DNA from: Minisyncoccota bacterium
GTDB taxonomy: Bacteria > Patescibacteriota > Minisyncoccia > UBA6257 > 2-01-FULL-56-20
Length of the DNA: 64,000 nt
Assembly: GCA_041664245.1 (NCBI GenBank)
Contig: JBAYLC010000005.1
Span: 8,695-72,694, forward strand
Reading direction: 5' to 3'
Below, in pieces: positions 3,713 to 57,588 of this stretch. Made by a program: the position numbers and the translations under genes. Position 1 is the stretch's first letter. Every line of letters begins with the position of its first letter. Below the pieces are notes generated by a model. That model saw only the letters and a list, made by a program, of their open reading frames with translations. It made no database searches and had not been told where the DNA came from.

Positions 3713-4691
3713 TCGAAATAAGGATTTTATTTTTAGTGATCTAATGGATAAAAATTCTAAAATTTACATAGCCGGGCACCGAGGCCTTGTTGGGTCGGCT
3801 ATTTTAAGGAAGCTTCAGGCCGGCAACTATTCAAACCTGGTCACTCGCGAACATCAAGAACTTGATCTGCTTGACGCAAGAATGACAGCAGATTTTTTTA
3901 AAAAAGAAAAACCAGAATACGTAATCGATGCTGCAGCAAAAGTAGGTGGTATTCACGCAAATAACACCTATCCCGCTGAATTTATTTACAACAACCTCTG
4001 TATCCAAAACAATATTATTCACAGCTCATATCTGGCGAATGTTAAACGTTTGCTTTTCATGGGGAGTGCCTGCATCTATCCGAAAATTTGTCCGCAACCA
4101 ATCAAAGAAGAATACCTATTGACTGGAGCGCTTGAACCGACAAATGAACCTTATGCAATTGCAAAAATCGCGGGGTATGAAATGTGTGATGCATATAATC
4201 GCCAATATGGGACCGATTATTTTTCGGTAATGCCCACCAATCTCTATGGTCCCAACGATCACTTTAACCTTGAGAACTCACACGTGATCCCAGCACTTAT
4301 GCGTAAATTCTATGAGGCAAAAACGAAAGGGAAAAATGAAGTGGTTCTTTGGGGGACTGGAAGTCCTACGCGTGACTTTATGCACTCCGACGATCTCGCC
4401 GATGCCTGTATCTTTCTCATGAATCAGCCATCGCTCTCTCATAGCCTCATTAACATCGGAACCGGCAAGGATATTTCGATTAGGGATCTTGCCGAAACCG
4501 TAAGTAAGGTGAGCGGATTTGAGGGAAAACTCACCTGGGATACCTCAAAGCCAGATGGAACGCCGCGAAGACGCGTTGACACCGAGCGGCTGAACGCTAT
4601 GGGATGGCATCACACCGTAATACTCGAAGACGGACTTAGTTCGACTTATCAGTGGTTTCTTGATAATGTCGCCAATAAAATCAAGGTATAA
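3705..4691 (+). CDS. fcl: GDP-L-fucose synthase (GDP-4-keto-6-deoxymannose 3,5-epimerase/4-reductase)
   Basis: IYIAGHRGLVGSAI N-terminus and YAIAKIAG catalytic motif. Typical Fcl/WcaG length. Confidence 0.9.
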   Translation: MDSRNKDFIFSDLMDKNSKIYIAGHRGLVGSAILRKLQAGNYSNLVTREHQELDLLDARMTADFFKKEKPEYVIDAAAKVGGIHANNTYPAEFIYNNLCIQNNIIHSSYLANVKRLLFMGSACIYPKICPQPIKEEYLLTGALEPTNEPYAIAKIAGYEMCDAYNRQYGTDYFSVMPTNLYGPNDHFNLENSHVIPALMRKFYEAKTKGKNEVVLWGTGSPTRDFMHSDDLADACIFLMNQPSLSHSLINIGTGKDISIRDLAETVSKVSGFEGKLTWDTSKPDGTPRRRVDTERLNAMGWHHTVILEDGLSSTYQWFLDNVANKIKV

Positions 4692-4737: not shown

Positions 4738-5823
4738 ATGAATATTTCTGTAAAAGGAAAAAAAGTCGTAGTGTTTGATACTTTGGGGCCGCATTCCAAG
4801 CAGAATTTATGTTTTGATCCGAGCGTAGCAAAAGAGAAATGGTATCATCACTGTGCTTCTTATTTCTATGAAGAGTGCCAAAAAAAAGGTATTCAACTTA
4901 TTACCACCGATATTTATTTTGCCTTGTCAGAAAAACCAAAGGCTATCTGTATGCGAGAACGCATTGATGTGGACATGAGTACGTCACTCGCCCTACAAAA
5001 ATCCGGGGTGCGGCTTGCGGTTATTAGAAATTCTGAAAATCCGTTATATGCCTGCCGTTTTTTTTGGAACCTCGAAAGGCTTACGAGCTATTTTGATCAT
5101 TCAGTCGTGGTAAAAGGTGTAAAAGATTGGGTATCGCCTAAAAGCCATTTCCATCCGTGGTTTATCCCTCACGCATATTACAGCCAAATTCATGAAGTGC
5201 AATCAGACTTCCGCAAAAAAAAGTTTCTCGTTCTCATTCAACGGAATGCGAGGATACATTGGTTGCGCCGTTTATATGTGTCCGGGTTGAATTTTATAAA
5301 ACCTCTGCCAAATTTCGTAAACCAGGAAGGGTATCTTAATCGGCTAGAAGCCATAAAATATTTCTCTCAATATCCTGATTTTGATTTATATGGAATGTGG
5401 TGGGATAAACCAGTTCGCTATACACGCAAATATGACGAATCTATTCGAAAATCATATCGTGGGGCTGTTGAAGATAAATTCGCATTATTGAAGCAGTACA
5501 AGTTTTCTCTTATATTTGATAATGCTTATTTAGGGGGGATGGTACATGAGAAAATGACTGATTGTCTTTATGCCGGTTCCGTCCCGATTTATTGGGGGGC
5601 GCCAGACATTGCCGATATTTTCCCAGCTAATTGTTTTATTGATTTCAGGAAATTCGGTTGTGATTTTGCCCGCCTTAATGAATATCTACGCGCTATGGAC
5701 GAAAACACCTATAACGACTACATTAAAAATATCAATAAATTTATATCCTCGCCTGCAGCCTACAATCTAAGTCAAGAAAAATACACGGGCGATATGATAA
5801 AAATTTTTGAATCGTATTTTTAA
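4738..5823 (+). CDS. GT10 alpha-1,3-fucosyltransferase
   Basis: YKFSLIFDNAYLGGMVHEKMTDCLYAGSVPIYWGAP matches the FucT motifs YKFxLxFENS...YxTEK...PIYWG of Helicobacter FutA/B. Immediately downstream of the GDP-fucose genes. Confidence 0.8.
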   Translation: MNISVKGKKVVVFDTLGPHSKQNLCFDPSVAKEKWYHHCASYFYEECQKKGIQLITTDIYFALSEKPKAICMRERIDVDMSTSLALQKSGVRLAVIRNSENPLYACRFFWNLERLTSYFDHSVVVKGVKDWVSPKSHFHPWFIPHAYYSQIHEVQSDFRKKKFLVLIQRNARIHWLRRLYVSGLNFIKPLPNFVNQEGYLNRLEAIKYFSQYPDFDLYGMWWDKPVRYTRKYDESIRKSYRGAVEDKFALLKQYKFSLIFDNAYLGGMVHEKMTDCLYAGSVPIYWGAPDIADIFPANCFIDFRKFGCDFARLNEYLRAMDENTYNDYIKNINKFISSPAAYNLSQEKYTGDMIKIFESYF

Positions 5824-53073: not shown

Positions 53074-53811
53074 TTACTCTCCCTTGGCCTCGATGAATTG
53101 CCCCTCATAAGAGTCAACAAAACGGACGCACCAATCTCGGATTTCCTTTTTCCAAATTTCTTTTCGGAAACCAGGTAAAGAGCGGGCCAGGTAGTCTAAC
53201 CGCCTTATCTGATGACGCAATGTTTGAACAAGAATTCTCACATTCCCGCGCTCCGTGTATTGTTCAAAAGCGTAGAGAAGATAATCCCAGATTTCTACTG
53301 CCCGAAAAACCAATGCCTCTACCCTTTCATTTCTAGCCAATTCTTTCATTATTTCCTTGGCATCATGCGGGAAGATCTTAGGAACATCCAACGCGAACTG
53401 TAATAAGAAGGCACGGTGGAAGAAGTAGAACTGATCAGGCGGTAGTTTCGAAAAAACTTTCAAAAACGCACTATATTCCTCCAGATCTCCCACCCCGCTC
53501 TTGTCAATAAAAACTGTGTCCCTCCCCATTTCACCCTCGCCAAAATCATGGATAATAAGCGCCGATAAGACTAAATTTCTATCGAAGATAGCATAAGGGC
53601 TTATTTGGGTCATCATCTGGATGCCCAATAGAGAAATAGAAAGAGAATGTTGACAAGAATTCTGTATTCTAACCCCACCATCTCCTTCAATATATTTGTC
53701 CCACCTGATTACGCTACTCAGTCTTGTTTGGATTGATAGCCATGATTCAGTAATCTGTTGAAACGGCGCCAAGGACAACGAAGTTGGCAACGCTTCAGTT
53801 CTTGAAGTCAT
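53074..53811 (-). CDS. HD-domain phosphohydrolase (YfbR-like 5'-deoxynucleotidase fold)
   Basis: ALIIHDFGEGEMGRD...GVGD resembles the YfbR HD..E...GD pattern. Confidence 0.5.
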   Translation of the reverse strand: MTSRTEALPTSLSLAPFQQITESWLSIQTRLSSVIRWDKYIEGDGGVRIQNSCQHSLSISLLGIQMMTQISPYAIFDRNLVLSALIIHDFGEGEMGRDTVFIDKSGVGDLEEYSAFLKVFSKLPPDQFYFFHRAFLLQFALDVPKIFPHDAKEIMKELARNERVEALVFRAVEIWDYLLYAFEQYTERGNVRILVQTLRHQIRRLDYLARSLPGFRKEIWKKEIRDWCVRFVDSYEGQFIEAKGE

Positions 53812-53963
53812 AGAAACTCCTCTCTGTAAGTTTTCAAGTTTAACTGTGGTTATTTATAGCACCTACTAAATTCCTGGCAAGGGCTGTTAAATTTTTGTAA
53901 AATAGGTTAAAATCCACTCATAAAAAGTCGCAGAAAACCCATTTATATTAAAAACCAAATAAA

Positions 53964-54524
53964 ATGACAACAATCATCATCGCTATTGTCGCTGTAATCG
54001 TCTTGTGGTTCATTTTCAGTTACAACGGCTTCGTGCGGTTGAATAACCGCGTCAAAGAAGCCTGGTCGGATATCGAAGTTCAGTTAAAACGTCGCTACGA
54101 CTTAATTCCCAATTTAGTCGCCACCGTTAAAGGTTACGCTTCTCACGAAAGCGGAGTTTTTGAAAAAGTCACCGAAGCTCGCACTCGCGCCATGGGCGCC
54201 GAAGCAAAAGGGGATATGAAAGATTTAGCCAAAGCCGAGAATATGCTCTCCGGCGCGCTCAAAACGCTTTTTGCCGTCTCCGAAAATTATCCCAATCTTC
54301 GCGCTTCGGAAAATTTCTCCCAGCTTCAGGTTGAACTCTCCGACACCGAAAATAAAATCCAAGCCGCCCGCCGCTTCTACAATGGCAATGTTCGTGACTT
54401 CAATACTAAAGTTGAAACTTTTCCATCCAATCTAATCGCCGGAATGTTTCATTTCACCGCCAAGGAATTTTTCGACATTGATGAATCCGGCCCGGAAGCT
54501 AAGCCGGTGGAGGTTAAATTTTAA
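53964..54524 (+). CDS. lemA: LemA-family protein
   Basis: N-terminal TM helix plus YNGFVRLNNRVKEAWSDIEVQLKRRYDLIPNLV, which is the LemA signature. Confidence 0.9.
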   Translation: MTTIIIAIVAVIVLWFIFSYNGFVRLNNRVKEAWSDIEVQLKRRYDLIPNLVATVKGYASHESGVFEKVTEARTRAMGAEAKGDMKDLAKAENMLSGALKTLFAVSENYPNLRASENFSQLQVELSDTENKIQAARRFYNGNVRDFNTKVETFPSNLIAGMFHFTAKEFFDIDESGPEAKPVEVKF

Positions 54525-54530
54525 AGTTAT

Positions 54531-54559
54531 AAATGTTGTAATTGTTGTAGGTGTTGTAA
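54531..54559 (+). repeat. three tandem 9-bp repeats (core TGTTGTA) forming the left arm of an inverted repeat pair
   Basis: aTGTTGTAa-tTGTTGTAg-gTGTTGTAa. AATTGTTGTAG (54540-54550) is the exact reverse complement of 54969-54979. Confidence 0.7.
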
Positions 54560-54937
54560 ATGCACGATTCTGGTTTCAAAAACTATCGTTTTGAGGATCT
54601 TGAAGTTTGGCAGCTTGGAATAAAAATAGTTGGCGAAGTTTATAATCTTGCAAAAAAATTTCCAAAGGAAGAATTATTTGCTCTATCTGATCAATTAAAA
54701 CGAGCGTCAACATCAATTGTTTTGAATATTGCCGAAGGATCTGGCCAGTCGACACATAAAAGTTTCGCTCTATATCTGAACCGCTCCAAGTCGTCGCTTT
54801 TAGAATCAGTCGCTTGTATCAAGATTGCTATTCAGCAAGGATTTGTTAACAAAAAAGAAACTGAAGATTTGGACAAATTATTTCGGGAAGAATATTTTAA
54901 GATTATTGCTTTAGAAAAATCGGTAAATAATAAATAA
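54560..54937 (+). CDS. four-helix-bundle protein of the 23S rRNA intervening-sequence type (TIGR02436-like)
   Basis: FEDLEVWQLGIKIVGEVYNLAKKFPKEELFALSDQLKRASTSIVLNIAEGSG is the family signature. Confidence 0.85.
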   Translation: MHDSGFKNYRFEDLEVWQLGIKIVGEVYNLAKKFPKEELFALSDQLKRASTSIVLNIAEGSGQSTHKSFALYLNRSKSSLLESVACIKIAIQQGFVNKKETEDLDKLFREEYFKIIALEKSVNNK

Positions 54938-54980
54938 ACATCTAGAACACTTATAACATTTAGAACATCTACAACAATTT
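54938..54980 (+). repeat. right arm: four bottom-strand TGTTNTA heptamers including CTACAACAATT
   Basis: TAGAACA, TATAACA, TAGAACA, TACAACA read on the top strand. Confidence 0.7.
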
Positions 54981-54987
54981 TAGCAAC

Positions 54988-55893
54988 ATGTCTACTCTCT
55001 ATACCTTCAAGTCCTCAAACATAAGAAAGACTTATCTCCTATTTTTTCTTTTCTTCATTGTCATCATCGGCCTCGGCTGGGTGTTTTCGCGCATCTACGG
55101 AAATTTTAATATCCTGATTTTTGCCGTTATTTTCTCGAGCTTTATGAGCATCATCAGCTACTGGTATTCTGACAAGATTGTTTTGAAAATGGCGAAAGCT
55201 GTTCCAGTTTCCGAATCTACCAATCAAGAGCTCTATCACCTCGTTGAAAACCTCGCCATCACCGCTGGCCTCCCCACTCCGAAAATTTATATTGTTCCCG
55301 AAATGGCGCCGAACGCTTTCGCCACCGGACGAGACCCCCGGCACGCTGTCGTTGCCGTAACCAATGGTCTGCTTCAAAAACTAAACAAAACCGAACTCGA
55401 AGGAGTTCTCGCTCATGAACTATCACACATTGGCAATCGCGATATATTAATCGGCACCGTCGCCGTTATTCTAGTCGGCTTCATTACAGTTCTAGCCGAC
55501 ATCTTTATCCGTTCCACGTTTTTTGGCGGCTTTCGCCGCAGCAACGACCGCGATAATCAAGCTGGTAATATTCTTTTCCTTGTCGGTATTGCCCTTTCGA
55601 TTCTCGCTCCGATTGCCGCTACCTTAATGCAGTTGGCCATTTCCCGCCGGCGCGAATTTTTAGCCGACACCTCCGGCGCGCTTTTAACCCGCTACCCCGA
55701 GGGGCTCGCCACCGCTCTTGAAAAAATTTCTAGTGATCAAACCCCAATGAGCGTGGCCAAAGACTCCACCGCTCATCTCTGGCTTTCTAATCCATTCAAA
55801 AACAATAAAAAGGTTTCCTTCATTTCTAAATTGTTTATGACCCACCCGCCGATAGAGGAAAGAGTAAAAGCTCTCCGAGGTTTAAAGATCTGA
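54988..55893 (+). CDS. htpX: M48-family zinc metalloprotease HtpX
   Basis: Two or more N-terminal TM helices. HELSHIGNRD (HExxH). ...EFLADTSGA. Confidence 0.9.
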   Translation: MSTLYTFKSSNIRKTYLLFFLFFIVIIGLGWVFSRIYGNFNILIFAVIFSSFMSIISYWYSDKIVLKMAKAVPVSESTNQELYHLVENLAITAGLPTPKIYIVPEMAPNAFATGRDPRHAVVAVTNGLLQKLNKTELEGVLAHELSHIGNRDILIGTVAVILVGFITVLADIFIRSTFFGGFRRSNDRDNQAGNILFLVGIALSILAPIAATLMQLAISRRREFLADTSGALLTRYPEGLATALEKISSDQTPMSVAKDSTAHLWLSNPFKNNKKVSFISKLFMTHPPIEERVKALRGLKI

Positions 55894-57501: not shown

Positions 57502-57588
57502 GGAGGGTTCGCATAGTGGTCTAGTGCGCAGTCCTGGAAAGACTGTGTGGGGAAACCCACCGAGAGTTCGAATCTCTCACCCTCCGCC
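57502..57588 (+). tRNA. tRNA-Ser (anticodon GGA)
   Basis: Manual fold. Acceptor GGAGGGT/ACCCTCC, D-arm CGCA...TGCG, anticodon stem CAGTC/GACTG with loop CTGGAAA, long variable arm TGGGGAAACCCACC, T-arm GAGAG-TTCGAAT-CTCTC, discriminator G. Confidence 0.85.

Follow-up and report, generated by a model that had tools for sequence, protein, structure and literature searches.

For 30 years, intervening sequences (IVSs) that carry an ORF inside the 23S rRNA gene have been described as selfish elements, with neither a mode of movement nor a role of the conserved protein established. In Coxiella burnetii, two to three tandem GACAGAT heptamers precede the S23p ORF of the IVS, whose ends form a 28-bp terminal stem. 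RNase III cuts this IVS at the first repeat, and the GC content of the IVS lies below that of the genome (PMC4990558). Genes of the family, annotated as 23S_rRNA_IVP (Pfam PF05635), have also been found wedged in cas operons, which was interpreted as a functional link (PMC3936711, PMC10910872). The family includes Avd-like proteins of diversity-generating retroelements (DGRs) as well. Outside the family, the RAYT genes of REPtrons are flanked by inverted REP sequences.

Here we describe a unit that is composed like an ORF-bearing rRNA IVS but sits between two protein-coding genes. It occupies positions 54522-54988 of the 64-kb stretch of DNA that we analysed (the window), where a four-helix-bundle (4HB) ORF and two inverted repeat arrays form a discrete cassette. 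On balance, we favour the reading that this is an IVS-type 4HB cassette within an operon, spread by recombination; its looping out at the RNA level and its processing by RNase III are steps that we infer.

A four-helix-bundle gene between lemA and htpX

The initial annotation had recognised a 4HB ORF of the 23S rRNA IVS family between lemA and htpX, and profile searches bore this out. The upstream host gene (53964-54524, + strand) matches LemA (PF04011, E 2.9e-61), and the downstream host gene htpX (54988-55893, + strand) encodes an M48 peptidase (Peptidase_M48, PF01435, E 1.6e-32). Between them lies an ORF of 125 aa (54560-54937, + strand) that matches PF05635 with an E-value of 1.5e-28 and 99.5 bits (cutoff 33.8), and TIGR02436, 'four helix bundle protein', with 85.3 bits (cutoff 24). 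The motif RxxxSxxxNxxE, which is conserved in the family (PMC3936711), occurs once in a real ORF of the window, and its residues R48, S52, N56 and E59 are invariant in the homologue alignment.

Among solved structures, that of Xcc0516 (PDB 2GSC) is closest in sequence (phmmer E 5e-12). An AF2 model of the monomer (pLDDT 90.8) has helices at residues 15-31, 41-61, 66-92 and 98-123. In Foldseek comparisons it matched 2GSC with a TM score of 0.89-0.95 and an rmsd of 0.9, and BT_0352 (2RLD, 'S23 ribosomal protein family') with a TM score of 0.77-0.89. The match to the DGR protein Avd (4DWL/8UB7) was more distant, with a TM score of about 0.75. The predicted protein thus resembles the free-standing S23p-family 4HB proteins Xcc0516 and BT_0352 in sequence, fold and motif, and shares a fold superfamily with Avd, a small nucleic-acid-associated helical-bundle oligomer. 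These matches place it in the PF05635/TIGR02436 family as an S23p/Avd-like protein.

The three genes are co-directional across 53964-55893, and the cassette is seated exactly between the lemA stop codon and the htpX start codon, with spacers of 35 nt before the 4HB ORF and 50 nt after it. Promoter and terminator scans found nothing specific within the two spacers. Since neither contains a terminator-like site, lemA, the 4HB ORF and htpX are probably read as a single transcript. A promoter-like site upstream of lemA (53874-53903, + strand) is weakly indicated, as consensus matches were no more numerous than the shuffle expectation. A scan with Rfam found no rRNA in the 64-kb window, and at the cassette it detected neither rRNA nor any known RNA family in the window and 11 related loci. 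The window also contained no second cassette, no further array and no RNase III gene or signature. RNase III is encoded in related CPR contigs, at two genes' distance upstream of lemA.

Mirror-image repeat arrays and their predicted stem

The 4HB ORF is bracketed by two arrays with a 9-nt period. The left array (54522-54562, + strand) consists of the units GTTATAAAT, GTTGTAATT, GTTGTAGGT and GTTGTAAAT (TRF period 9, 4.7 copies), fills the entire spacer between lemA and the 4HB ORF and reaches into the 4HB ATG. Three tandem TGTTGTA units, which had been noted to the left of the ORF, begin at 54534, 54543 and 54552 with a degenerate GTTATAA unit in front of them. The right array (54937-54988, + strand) fills the spacer between the 4HB ORF and htpX and reaches into the htpX ATG. 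It comprises the four bottom-strand TGTTNTA heptamers of the initial annotation, read here as TAGAACA, TATAACA, TAGAACA and TACAACA at 54943-54976 with a 9-nt period, and a fifth, degenerate unit TAGCAACA. TRF delimits it to 54937-54976 (period 9, 4.4 copies).

The right units are the reverse complement of the left unit (TGTTGTA core against TANAACA). The 11-mers AATTGTTGTAG (54540-54550) and CTACAACAATT (54969-54979) are, as had been claimed, exact reverse complements, and the best inverted pair joins 54540-54562 with 54957-54979 (23 nt, 91%). All features listed in the initial annotation were thus confirmed at its coordinates. A two-unit pattern had eight matches in the 64-kb window against 0.29 expected, and six of the eight lie inside the two spacers. 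The end of lemA itself, with the codons AAA TTT TAA in the window and AAG TTC TAA in the majority of relatives, is similar to the array unit.

The flanks had been expected to pair as a stable stem, and RNAduplex and cofold predict one of 29 bp. Its 5' arm (54533-54562, + strand) includes the 4HB start codon (54560-54562), while the last pairs of its 3' arm (54957-54989, + strand) extend two bases into the htpX start codon (54988-54989). Pairing falls into blocks of 7, 16 and 6 bp, with 54533-54539, 54540-54555 and 54557-54562 on the 5' side and 54957-54962, 54964-54979 and 54983-54989 on the 3' side. The duplex of the two arms has a predicted energy of -35.2 kcal/mol, compared to -12.8 +/- 3.0 for shuffled arms, and the closing stem is retained in both the MFE fold and the centroid of the full 481-nt segment. 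With longer flanks, the duplex was more stable than every one of 100 shuffles in only 16 of 27 cassettes; z-scores for these long flanks are noisy because neighbouring coding sequence dilutes the signal.

Sense duplexes were more stable than antisense duplexes in only 9 of 23 cassettes (Wilcoxon p = 0.30), which gives no sign of RNA-level selection, and only 70 of the 806 pairs in the duplexes were G-U. Considering this lack of asymmetry, the complementarity of the arms could be kept at the DNA level. A plain stem, moreover, needs no tandem repeats, so pairing alone fails to explain the repeat structure.

Like ORF-bearing 23S rRNA IVSs of Leptospira and Coxiella, the cassette encodes a PF05635 protein and has a size of about 430-460 nt. 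With the Coxiella IVS it shares complementary termini that can form a stem of about 28-29 bp enclosing the ORF, tandem repeats of 7-9 nt and variable copy number directly upstream of the ORF, a low GC content relative to the host and signs of horizontal transfer followed by vertical maintenance (PMC4990558). The window cassette differs in that it lies between two protein-coding genes and not in helix 9, 25 or 45 of 23S rRNA. Its ORF, unlike that of Coxiella, which is decaying and probably not translated, is intact and evolves under purifying selection. Excision by RNase III has been shown for the Coxiella IVS and would by analogy apply here too. The cassette may be said to resemble an ORF-bearing 23S rRNA IVS in how it would work, but it lacks the defining rRNA location.

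The gene and its arrays at other junctions

A protein search returned 758 homologues, mainly from Patescibacteria (CPR). Most close homologues likewise occur in the order lemA-4HB-htpX, and window-type homologues at no fewer than five other junctions also have TGTTNTA arrays to their left and TANAACA arrays to their right. Junctions with arrays among the close homologues (60-72% identity) are lemA/htpX, murA-like/mreB (loci L007 and L011), htpX/pyrH-like (L012), serine hydrolase/hsp20 (L114) and dsbA-like/trxB-like (L115). The TGTTNTA/TANAACA arrays flank the window-type protein at every site found. Further copies of the ORF with its arrays, which the initial annotation suggested looking for, are thus present in relatives, and the relatives carry the repeats together with the ORF rather than the ORF without them. 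To judge from these sequences, the arrays belong to the gene rather than to the site.

4HB genes of other subfamilies, found in CPR, Anaerolineae, Cyanobacteria and Riemerella, have different units, which are nearly always complementary between left and right. In CPR these include TCCTAA/TTAGGA and GAATG/CATTC (L012a and L012b), TTGTCGA/TCGTCAA (L109) and a unit of about 25 nt (L026); an Anaerolineae cassette has ATCGCGN/GCGATNN. On annotated plasmids, we found GGGAACA/TGTTCCC and GGGTGTG/CCTACAC in Nostoc, AAGGGAA/TCCCTTT in Geminocystis, GGAGATA/TCTCCTA in a Picosynechococcus cassette between cas10 and cmr3, and AAGGTTT/AAACCTT in Riemerella. The repeat unit differs with the 4HB subfamily even between two cassettes of one operon, as in L012 and in L138, where htpX and a zinc-ribbon gene enclose a 4HB gene of a different subfamily. 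Matches of 5-mers between the two flanks were more often inverted than direct in 23 of 26 metagenomic or MAG cassettes. The exceptions on plasmids are Pseudanabaena and Oscillatoria, with direct arrays, and Calothrix, with no arrays. The 4HB gene lies on the strand of the upstream gene at all inspected junctions except those of Calothrix and Oscillatoria, both on plasmids and both without inverted arrays. Arms typically contain 3-6 units, each 7-9 nt long. With counts of 3 to 14 units, a match of arm length to a pentamer, with five units, is not supported.

All of the cassettes that we examined, roughly 45 distinct ones, lie between protein genes, and Rfam found no rRNA in the 11 related loci scanned. 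This makes the rRNA location look like a special case. The initial annotation had proposed, as one of two options, a mobile IVS-like element captured outside rRNA. Its first part agrees with a transferable unit of ORF and arrays at several junctions; capture from rRNA is unsupported, with no rRNA copy seen and the cassettes all lying between protein genes. A scan of viral contigs with the 4HB alignment found no relatives, so there is no sign of phage carriage.

The plasmid cassettes bring two further repeat settings into view. The short tandemly repeated repetitive (STRR) heptamer arrays of heterocystous cyanobacteria were reportedly described by Mazel and colleagues in 1990 as dispersed intergenic repeats, and the 4HB genes of Nostoc, Geminocystis and Picosynechococcus are flanked by tandem heptamers of this kind. 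In the literature that we searched, no paper connected STRR arrays with PF05635 genes. Among the cas operons, the cas10/4HB/cmr3 and cas6/4HB/cas4 examples carry the arrays, and insertion of a selfish cassette is therefore a simpler reading of these genes than a functional link.

Empty and occupied lemA-htpX junctions

We scanned metagenome contigs with an HtpX alignment and retrieved 80 relatives (45-64% identity), 65 of which had lemA upstream on the same strand. Normal adjacency of lemA and htpX, as initially assumed, holds for about half of them: 33 of the 65 junctions are empty (spacer of 60 nt or less), many with only 0-7 nt, for example TTCTAAATG. In such empty-site relatives the lemA stop codon abuts the htpX ATG, and none of the 33 short-spacer junctions has a window-type 4HB gene. 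At the remaining junctions we found unrelated genes, a 4HB gene of another subfamily together with arrays of its own (L109), or hairpins without an ORF. A different 4HB subfamily occupies the site of the window cassette in both L012 and L109.

ORF-less inverted-array hairpins were found in L048 (TACGAAT/ATTCGT, -59 kcal/mol, z -8.1), L085 (TCACTAAT/ATTAGTGA, z -4.2) and L101 (TAAAGTC/GACTTT, z -4.5), and in L006 an ORF-less hairpin lies directly 3' of the cassette. The spacer of L064, palindromic in appearance, folds no better than shuffles. A comparison of occupied with empty junctions revealed no evident target-site duplication.

This one type of junction is known in empty, occupied, ORF-less and doubly occupied versions.

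Age and base composition of the cassette

The order lemA-4HB-htpX is conserved across a wide CPR clade. In 13 such loci, the identity of the 4HB protein follows that of the flanking proteins (r=0.69), with means of 62.6% and 61.7%, respectively. This indicates that the cassette has long been resident at lemA-htpX in this clade and that, at this depth, movement is rare. The insertion is thus neither recent nor unusual here.

Over short distances the picture is different. Between the window and its nearest relative, L005, the segment 54513-54990 has 16 differences in 478 nt (3.3%) compared to 12.7% in lemA and 11.1% in htpX, so that the cassette is 3-4 times less diverged than the flanking genes. 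Third-position identity is 92% in the cassette and 71-74% in the flanks (Fisher p = 9e-7). The left array is 100% identical between the two, and the substitution density shifts at the arrays, which form the edges of the low-divergence segment. A second strain set, L119-L128, shows 0/372 differences in the ORF, 0/37 in the right spacer and at most 1/40 in the left spacer, while divergence reaches 16% in lemA and 9% in the first 200 nt of htpX. Both comparisons are between metagenome assemblies, and the L119-L128 contigs were chosen for an identical 4HB protein; that choice leaves the absence of synonymous changes in this set unexplained. In both strain comparisons, the cassette is much younger than its flanks.

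The cassette has a GC content of 32.2%, with 26-28% in the spacers, against 46.2% and 46.6% in the flanks, which puts it among the lowest 3% of windows of the same size. Its base composition is foreign to the region. Sporadic distribution, atypical GC content and signs of horizontal transfer, the marks of a 23S rRNA IVS element, are all found here. The 4HB gene differs from that of L005 by 11 synonymous and only 2 nonsynonymous codons, which shows that it is kept by selection.

Proposed mechanism and alternative explanations

In the explanation that we favour, the cassette consists of a PF05635 gene that lacks a promoter of its own and of two inverted tandem-repeat arrays that move along with it. 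Transcription of the host operon would run through the cassette, which would thus become part of the lemA-htpX mRNA. In the RNA, the arrays would pair as a stem of about 29 bp, which would loop out the 4HB ORF and bring the lemA stop beside the htpX start. RNase III would then cut the stem, by analogy with the Coxiella 23S rRNA IVS, and we propose that the stem, as an RNase III substrate, would make the insertion tolerable to the host operon. Finally, the arrays would serve as short homology arms, through which the cassette could be swapped between strains or enter sites that already bear an array by recombination. Such a role of the arrays would account for the hairpins that lack an ORF and for the abrupt limits of the segment with low divergence. 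As the array unit varies with the 4HB subfamily, we also consider it likely that the 4HB oligomer binds its own arrays. The sequence comparisons above show that gene and arrays move between sites and strains with no recombinase of their own nearby.

Known mobile units with terminal repeats do not fit the cassette. A TIR transposon or MITE was rejected because the neighbouring genes include no transposase, no further array occurs in the 64 kb and no target-site duplication is evident. An integron gene cassette was rejected on account of the repeats on both sides, the single insertions in ordinary operons and the lack of an adjacent integrase in the CPR loci. REPtrons and non-autonomous TIR elements do resemble the cassette, in that a gene is bracketed by inverted short repeats that covary with the gene family and ORF-less repeat hairpins occur elsewhere. 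They differ in that the cassette has neither a transposase nor a RAYT fold, no target-site duplication was seen, and its repeats are not dispersed in the 64-kb window; a REPtron was rejected on the same grounds of fold and repeat distribution.

Alternatively, each array could offer the 4HB oligomer several binding sites, either on DNA or on single-stranded RNA, which would make the cassette a self-recognising unit for autoregulation, protection or end synapsis. The complementarity of the arms would then be a by-product of the same sites lying in opposite orientation, as in the subterminal sites of Tn7, Mu and En/Spm. That the repeat unit varies with the 4HB subfamily, even within one operon, argues for this. 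Arms of typically 3-6 units of 7-9 nt are also consistent with it, as are the pentameric state of the solved relatives (2GSC), the RNA-binding RNP of which Avd is a part (8UB7) and the lack of a sense/antisense asymmetry. Direct arrays, as found in some cassettes, are not predicted by the stem model. Against binding sites speak the only mildly basic nature of the 4HB protein (pI 8.6), ORF-less array hairpins that persist with no adjoining 4HB gene and the variable copy number of the arrays, from 3 to 14. As a rival explanation, we consider this reading unlikely. It is compatible with the stem model, to which it would be a serious complement, and both could hold.

A further possibility is that the cassette is a host-domesticated regulatory module with no current mobility. 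Its AU-rich stem, which covers both start codons, would couple or gate the translation of htpX, a heat-shock protease gene, to that of lemA, and the 4HB gene would be an ordinary accessory gene of a stress operon. This would fit the conservation and co-divergence of lemA-4HB-htpX in many CPR lineages and the purifying selection on the 4HB gene. Hairpins in other spacers of the lemA-htpX junction would fit it as well, and several other sites adjoin the chaperone or redox genes hsp20, trxB and groES/EL. Yet half of the relatives have no spacer at all, and the unit also occurs at murA-like/mreB junctions, within sets of cas genes and, on plasmids, between genes for transfer or partition. The low divergence of the cassette relative to its flanks in two strain sets, its foreign GC content and the different 4HB subfamily at the lemA-htpX site in L012 and L109 likewise point away from a domesticated module, which we regard as improbable.

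DGRs are common in CPR, and some close homologues of the 4HB protein also match PF22296 (bAvd). Along with the Avd-like members of PF05635 and the fold match to 4DWL/8UB7, this could suggest an Avd gene of a DGR, or a DGR fragment. No reverse-transcriptase family was found in the genes called over 6 kb to each side, so the locus is not a DGR. There are also no long repeats of the TR/VR type around the ORF, it is flanked by lemA and htpX in about 25 loci, and in both sequence and fold its product is far more similar to 2GSC and 2RLD than to the Avd chains, with which it shares 9-14% identity. We hold a DGR origin to be very improbable. Finally, chance low-complexity sequence, which slippage easily yields as short tandem repeats in short AT-rich spacers, is effectively refuted by the excess of pattern matches and their concentration in two spacers, by the predominance of inverted over direct flank matches and by the recurrence of the arrangement, with different units, in dozens of independent loci from four phyla.

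Implications

The window locus and its relatives show that elements of this type do not depend on a location in rRNA; the unit consists of the gene and its two mirror-image arrays and is found mainly between ordinary genes. We tentatively extend this to a wider proposal, which we hold to be quite possible but short of probable. PF05635 genes with inverted arrays would form a widespread, unrecognised class of mobile cassettes that lack a recombinase, with members in CPR, Chloroflexi, Cyanobacteria, Bacteroidota and Coxiella. These would wedge themselves between cistrons or into rRNA helices, be made harmless by RNA loop-out and spread by recombination between arrays, with the 4HB oligomer recognising its own array. 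In the full-text literature, which we covered in part, we found no account of PF05635 genes with flanking arrays outside rRNA, and an earlier description is possible.

If this wider proposal is true, the classical rRNA IVS, some of the cyanobacterial STRR arrays and the 23S_rRNA_IVP genes of cas operons would be facets of one element. Two puzzles would thereby gain a simpler reading, namely the recurrence of 23S_rRNA_IVP genes in cas operons and the nature of some cyanobacterial heptamer arrays. The mode of movement and the role of the protein can be tested in many genomes, through variants of a junction and through strain pairs in which the cassette is younger than its surroundings. For annotation, this small gene, common in CPR, is probably an insertion and not a member of the host operon.

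Possible origin of the flanking arrays

We compared the end of lemA with the short tandem arrays that flank the four-helix-bundle (4HB) gene and together with it form the cassette. The 3' end of lemA reads AAA TTT TAA in the window (54513-54524) and AAG TTC TAA in most relatives, and the GTTCTAA contained in the latter is identical to the array unit TGTTCTAA. The first array unit often directly adjoins the lemA stop codon, which suggests that arrays of the window type were seeded at the lemA 3' junction. At L114, where the cassette lies between a serine hydrolase gene and hsp20, GTTGTAA is the 3' end of the upstream gene.

Variation at the lemA-htpX junction

At three related loci the lemA-htpX spacer is a hairpin of inverted tandem arrays that contains no ORF (L048 1519-1658, L085 780-960 and L101 2202-2279), and at L006 such a hairpin is placed after a cassette (5376-5482). 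These hairpins, whose fold z-scores range between -4.2 and -8.1, could represent either landing pads or remnants. At L046 (208-374), the lemA-htpX spacer contains an intergenic repeat element of another kind, namely a GTCATTCTGAGCGAAGCGAAGAATC-type palindromic repeat.

The 4HB gene itself is disrupted at L016 and L023. In L016 (3125-4423), an insert of 830 nt lies between the left array and the 4HB gene; it contains a hairpin resembling a terminator, as well as an ORF of 207 aa that has a Shine-Dalgarno sequence of its own. The 4HB gene of L016 is probably a pseudogene because it starts with GTG and has a TGA in frame.

An identical cassette is common to the contigs of a second strain set (L119-L128), among which haplotypes of lemA and htpX occur in shuffled combinations: between L119 and L120, for example, there are 89 nucleotide differences in lemA but only 2 in htpX 1-200. 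Such shuffling points either to recombination at the cassette or to assembly chimeras formed there.

Upstream of lemA, the window contains a weak HD-domain ORF (53074-53811, minus strand), in place of which its nearest relative, L005, has a different 182-aa ORF (3729-4277, plus strand). On sequence comparison, this region is a second variable spot adjoining the operon. The sole Rfam match within the window is an 85-nt tRNA gene (57502-57586, plus strand).

Multiple cassettes and cas operons

Two loci have htpX flanked on both sides by cassettes of differing 4HB subfamilies within one operon, each cassette with its own repeat unit: TCCTAA versus GAATG in L012 (2606-3064 and 3971-4487), and TGTTCTAA versus TAGACC/TAAAC in L138 (2202-2632 and 3539-3991).

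In Nostoc and Geminocystis plasmids (L129, L130 and L131), the arrays flanking 4HB genes are tandem heptamers, which we take to resemble the classical short tandemly repeated repetitive (STRR) sequences of heterocystous cyanobacteria; we found no paper linking STRR repeats to the arrays flanking cyanobacterial 4HB genes. 4HB cassettes also interrupt cas operons, between cas10 and cmr3 in Picosynechococcus (L132) and between cas6 and cas4 on a Pseudanabaena plasmid (L134), where roughly 14 copies of AAAAGCT and 10 of AAAAGCC flank the 4HB gene in direct orientation. The published 'CRISPR association' of 23S_rRNA_IVP could stem from cas-operon insertions, or from arrays, of this sort.
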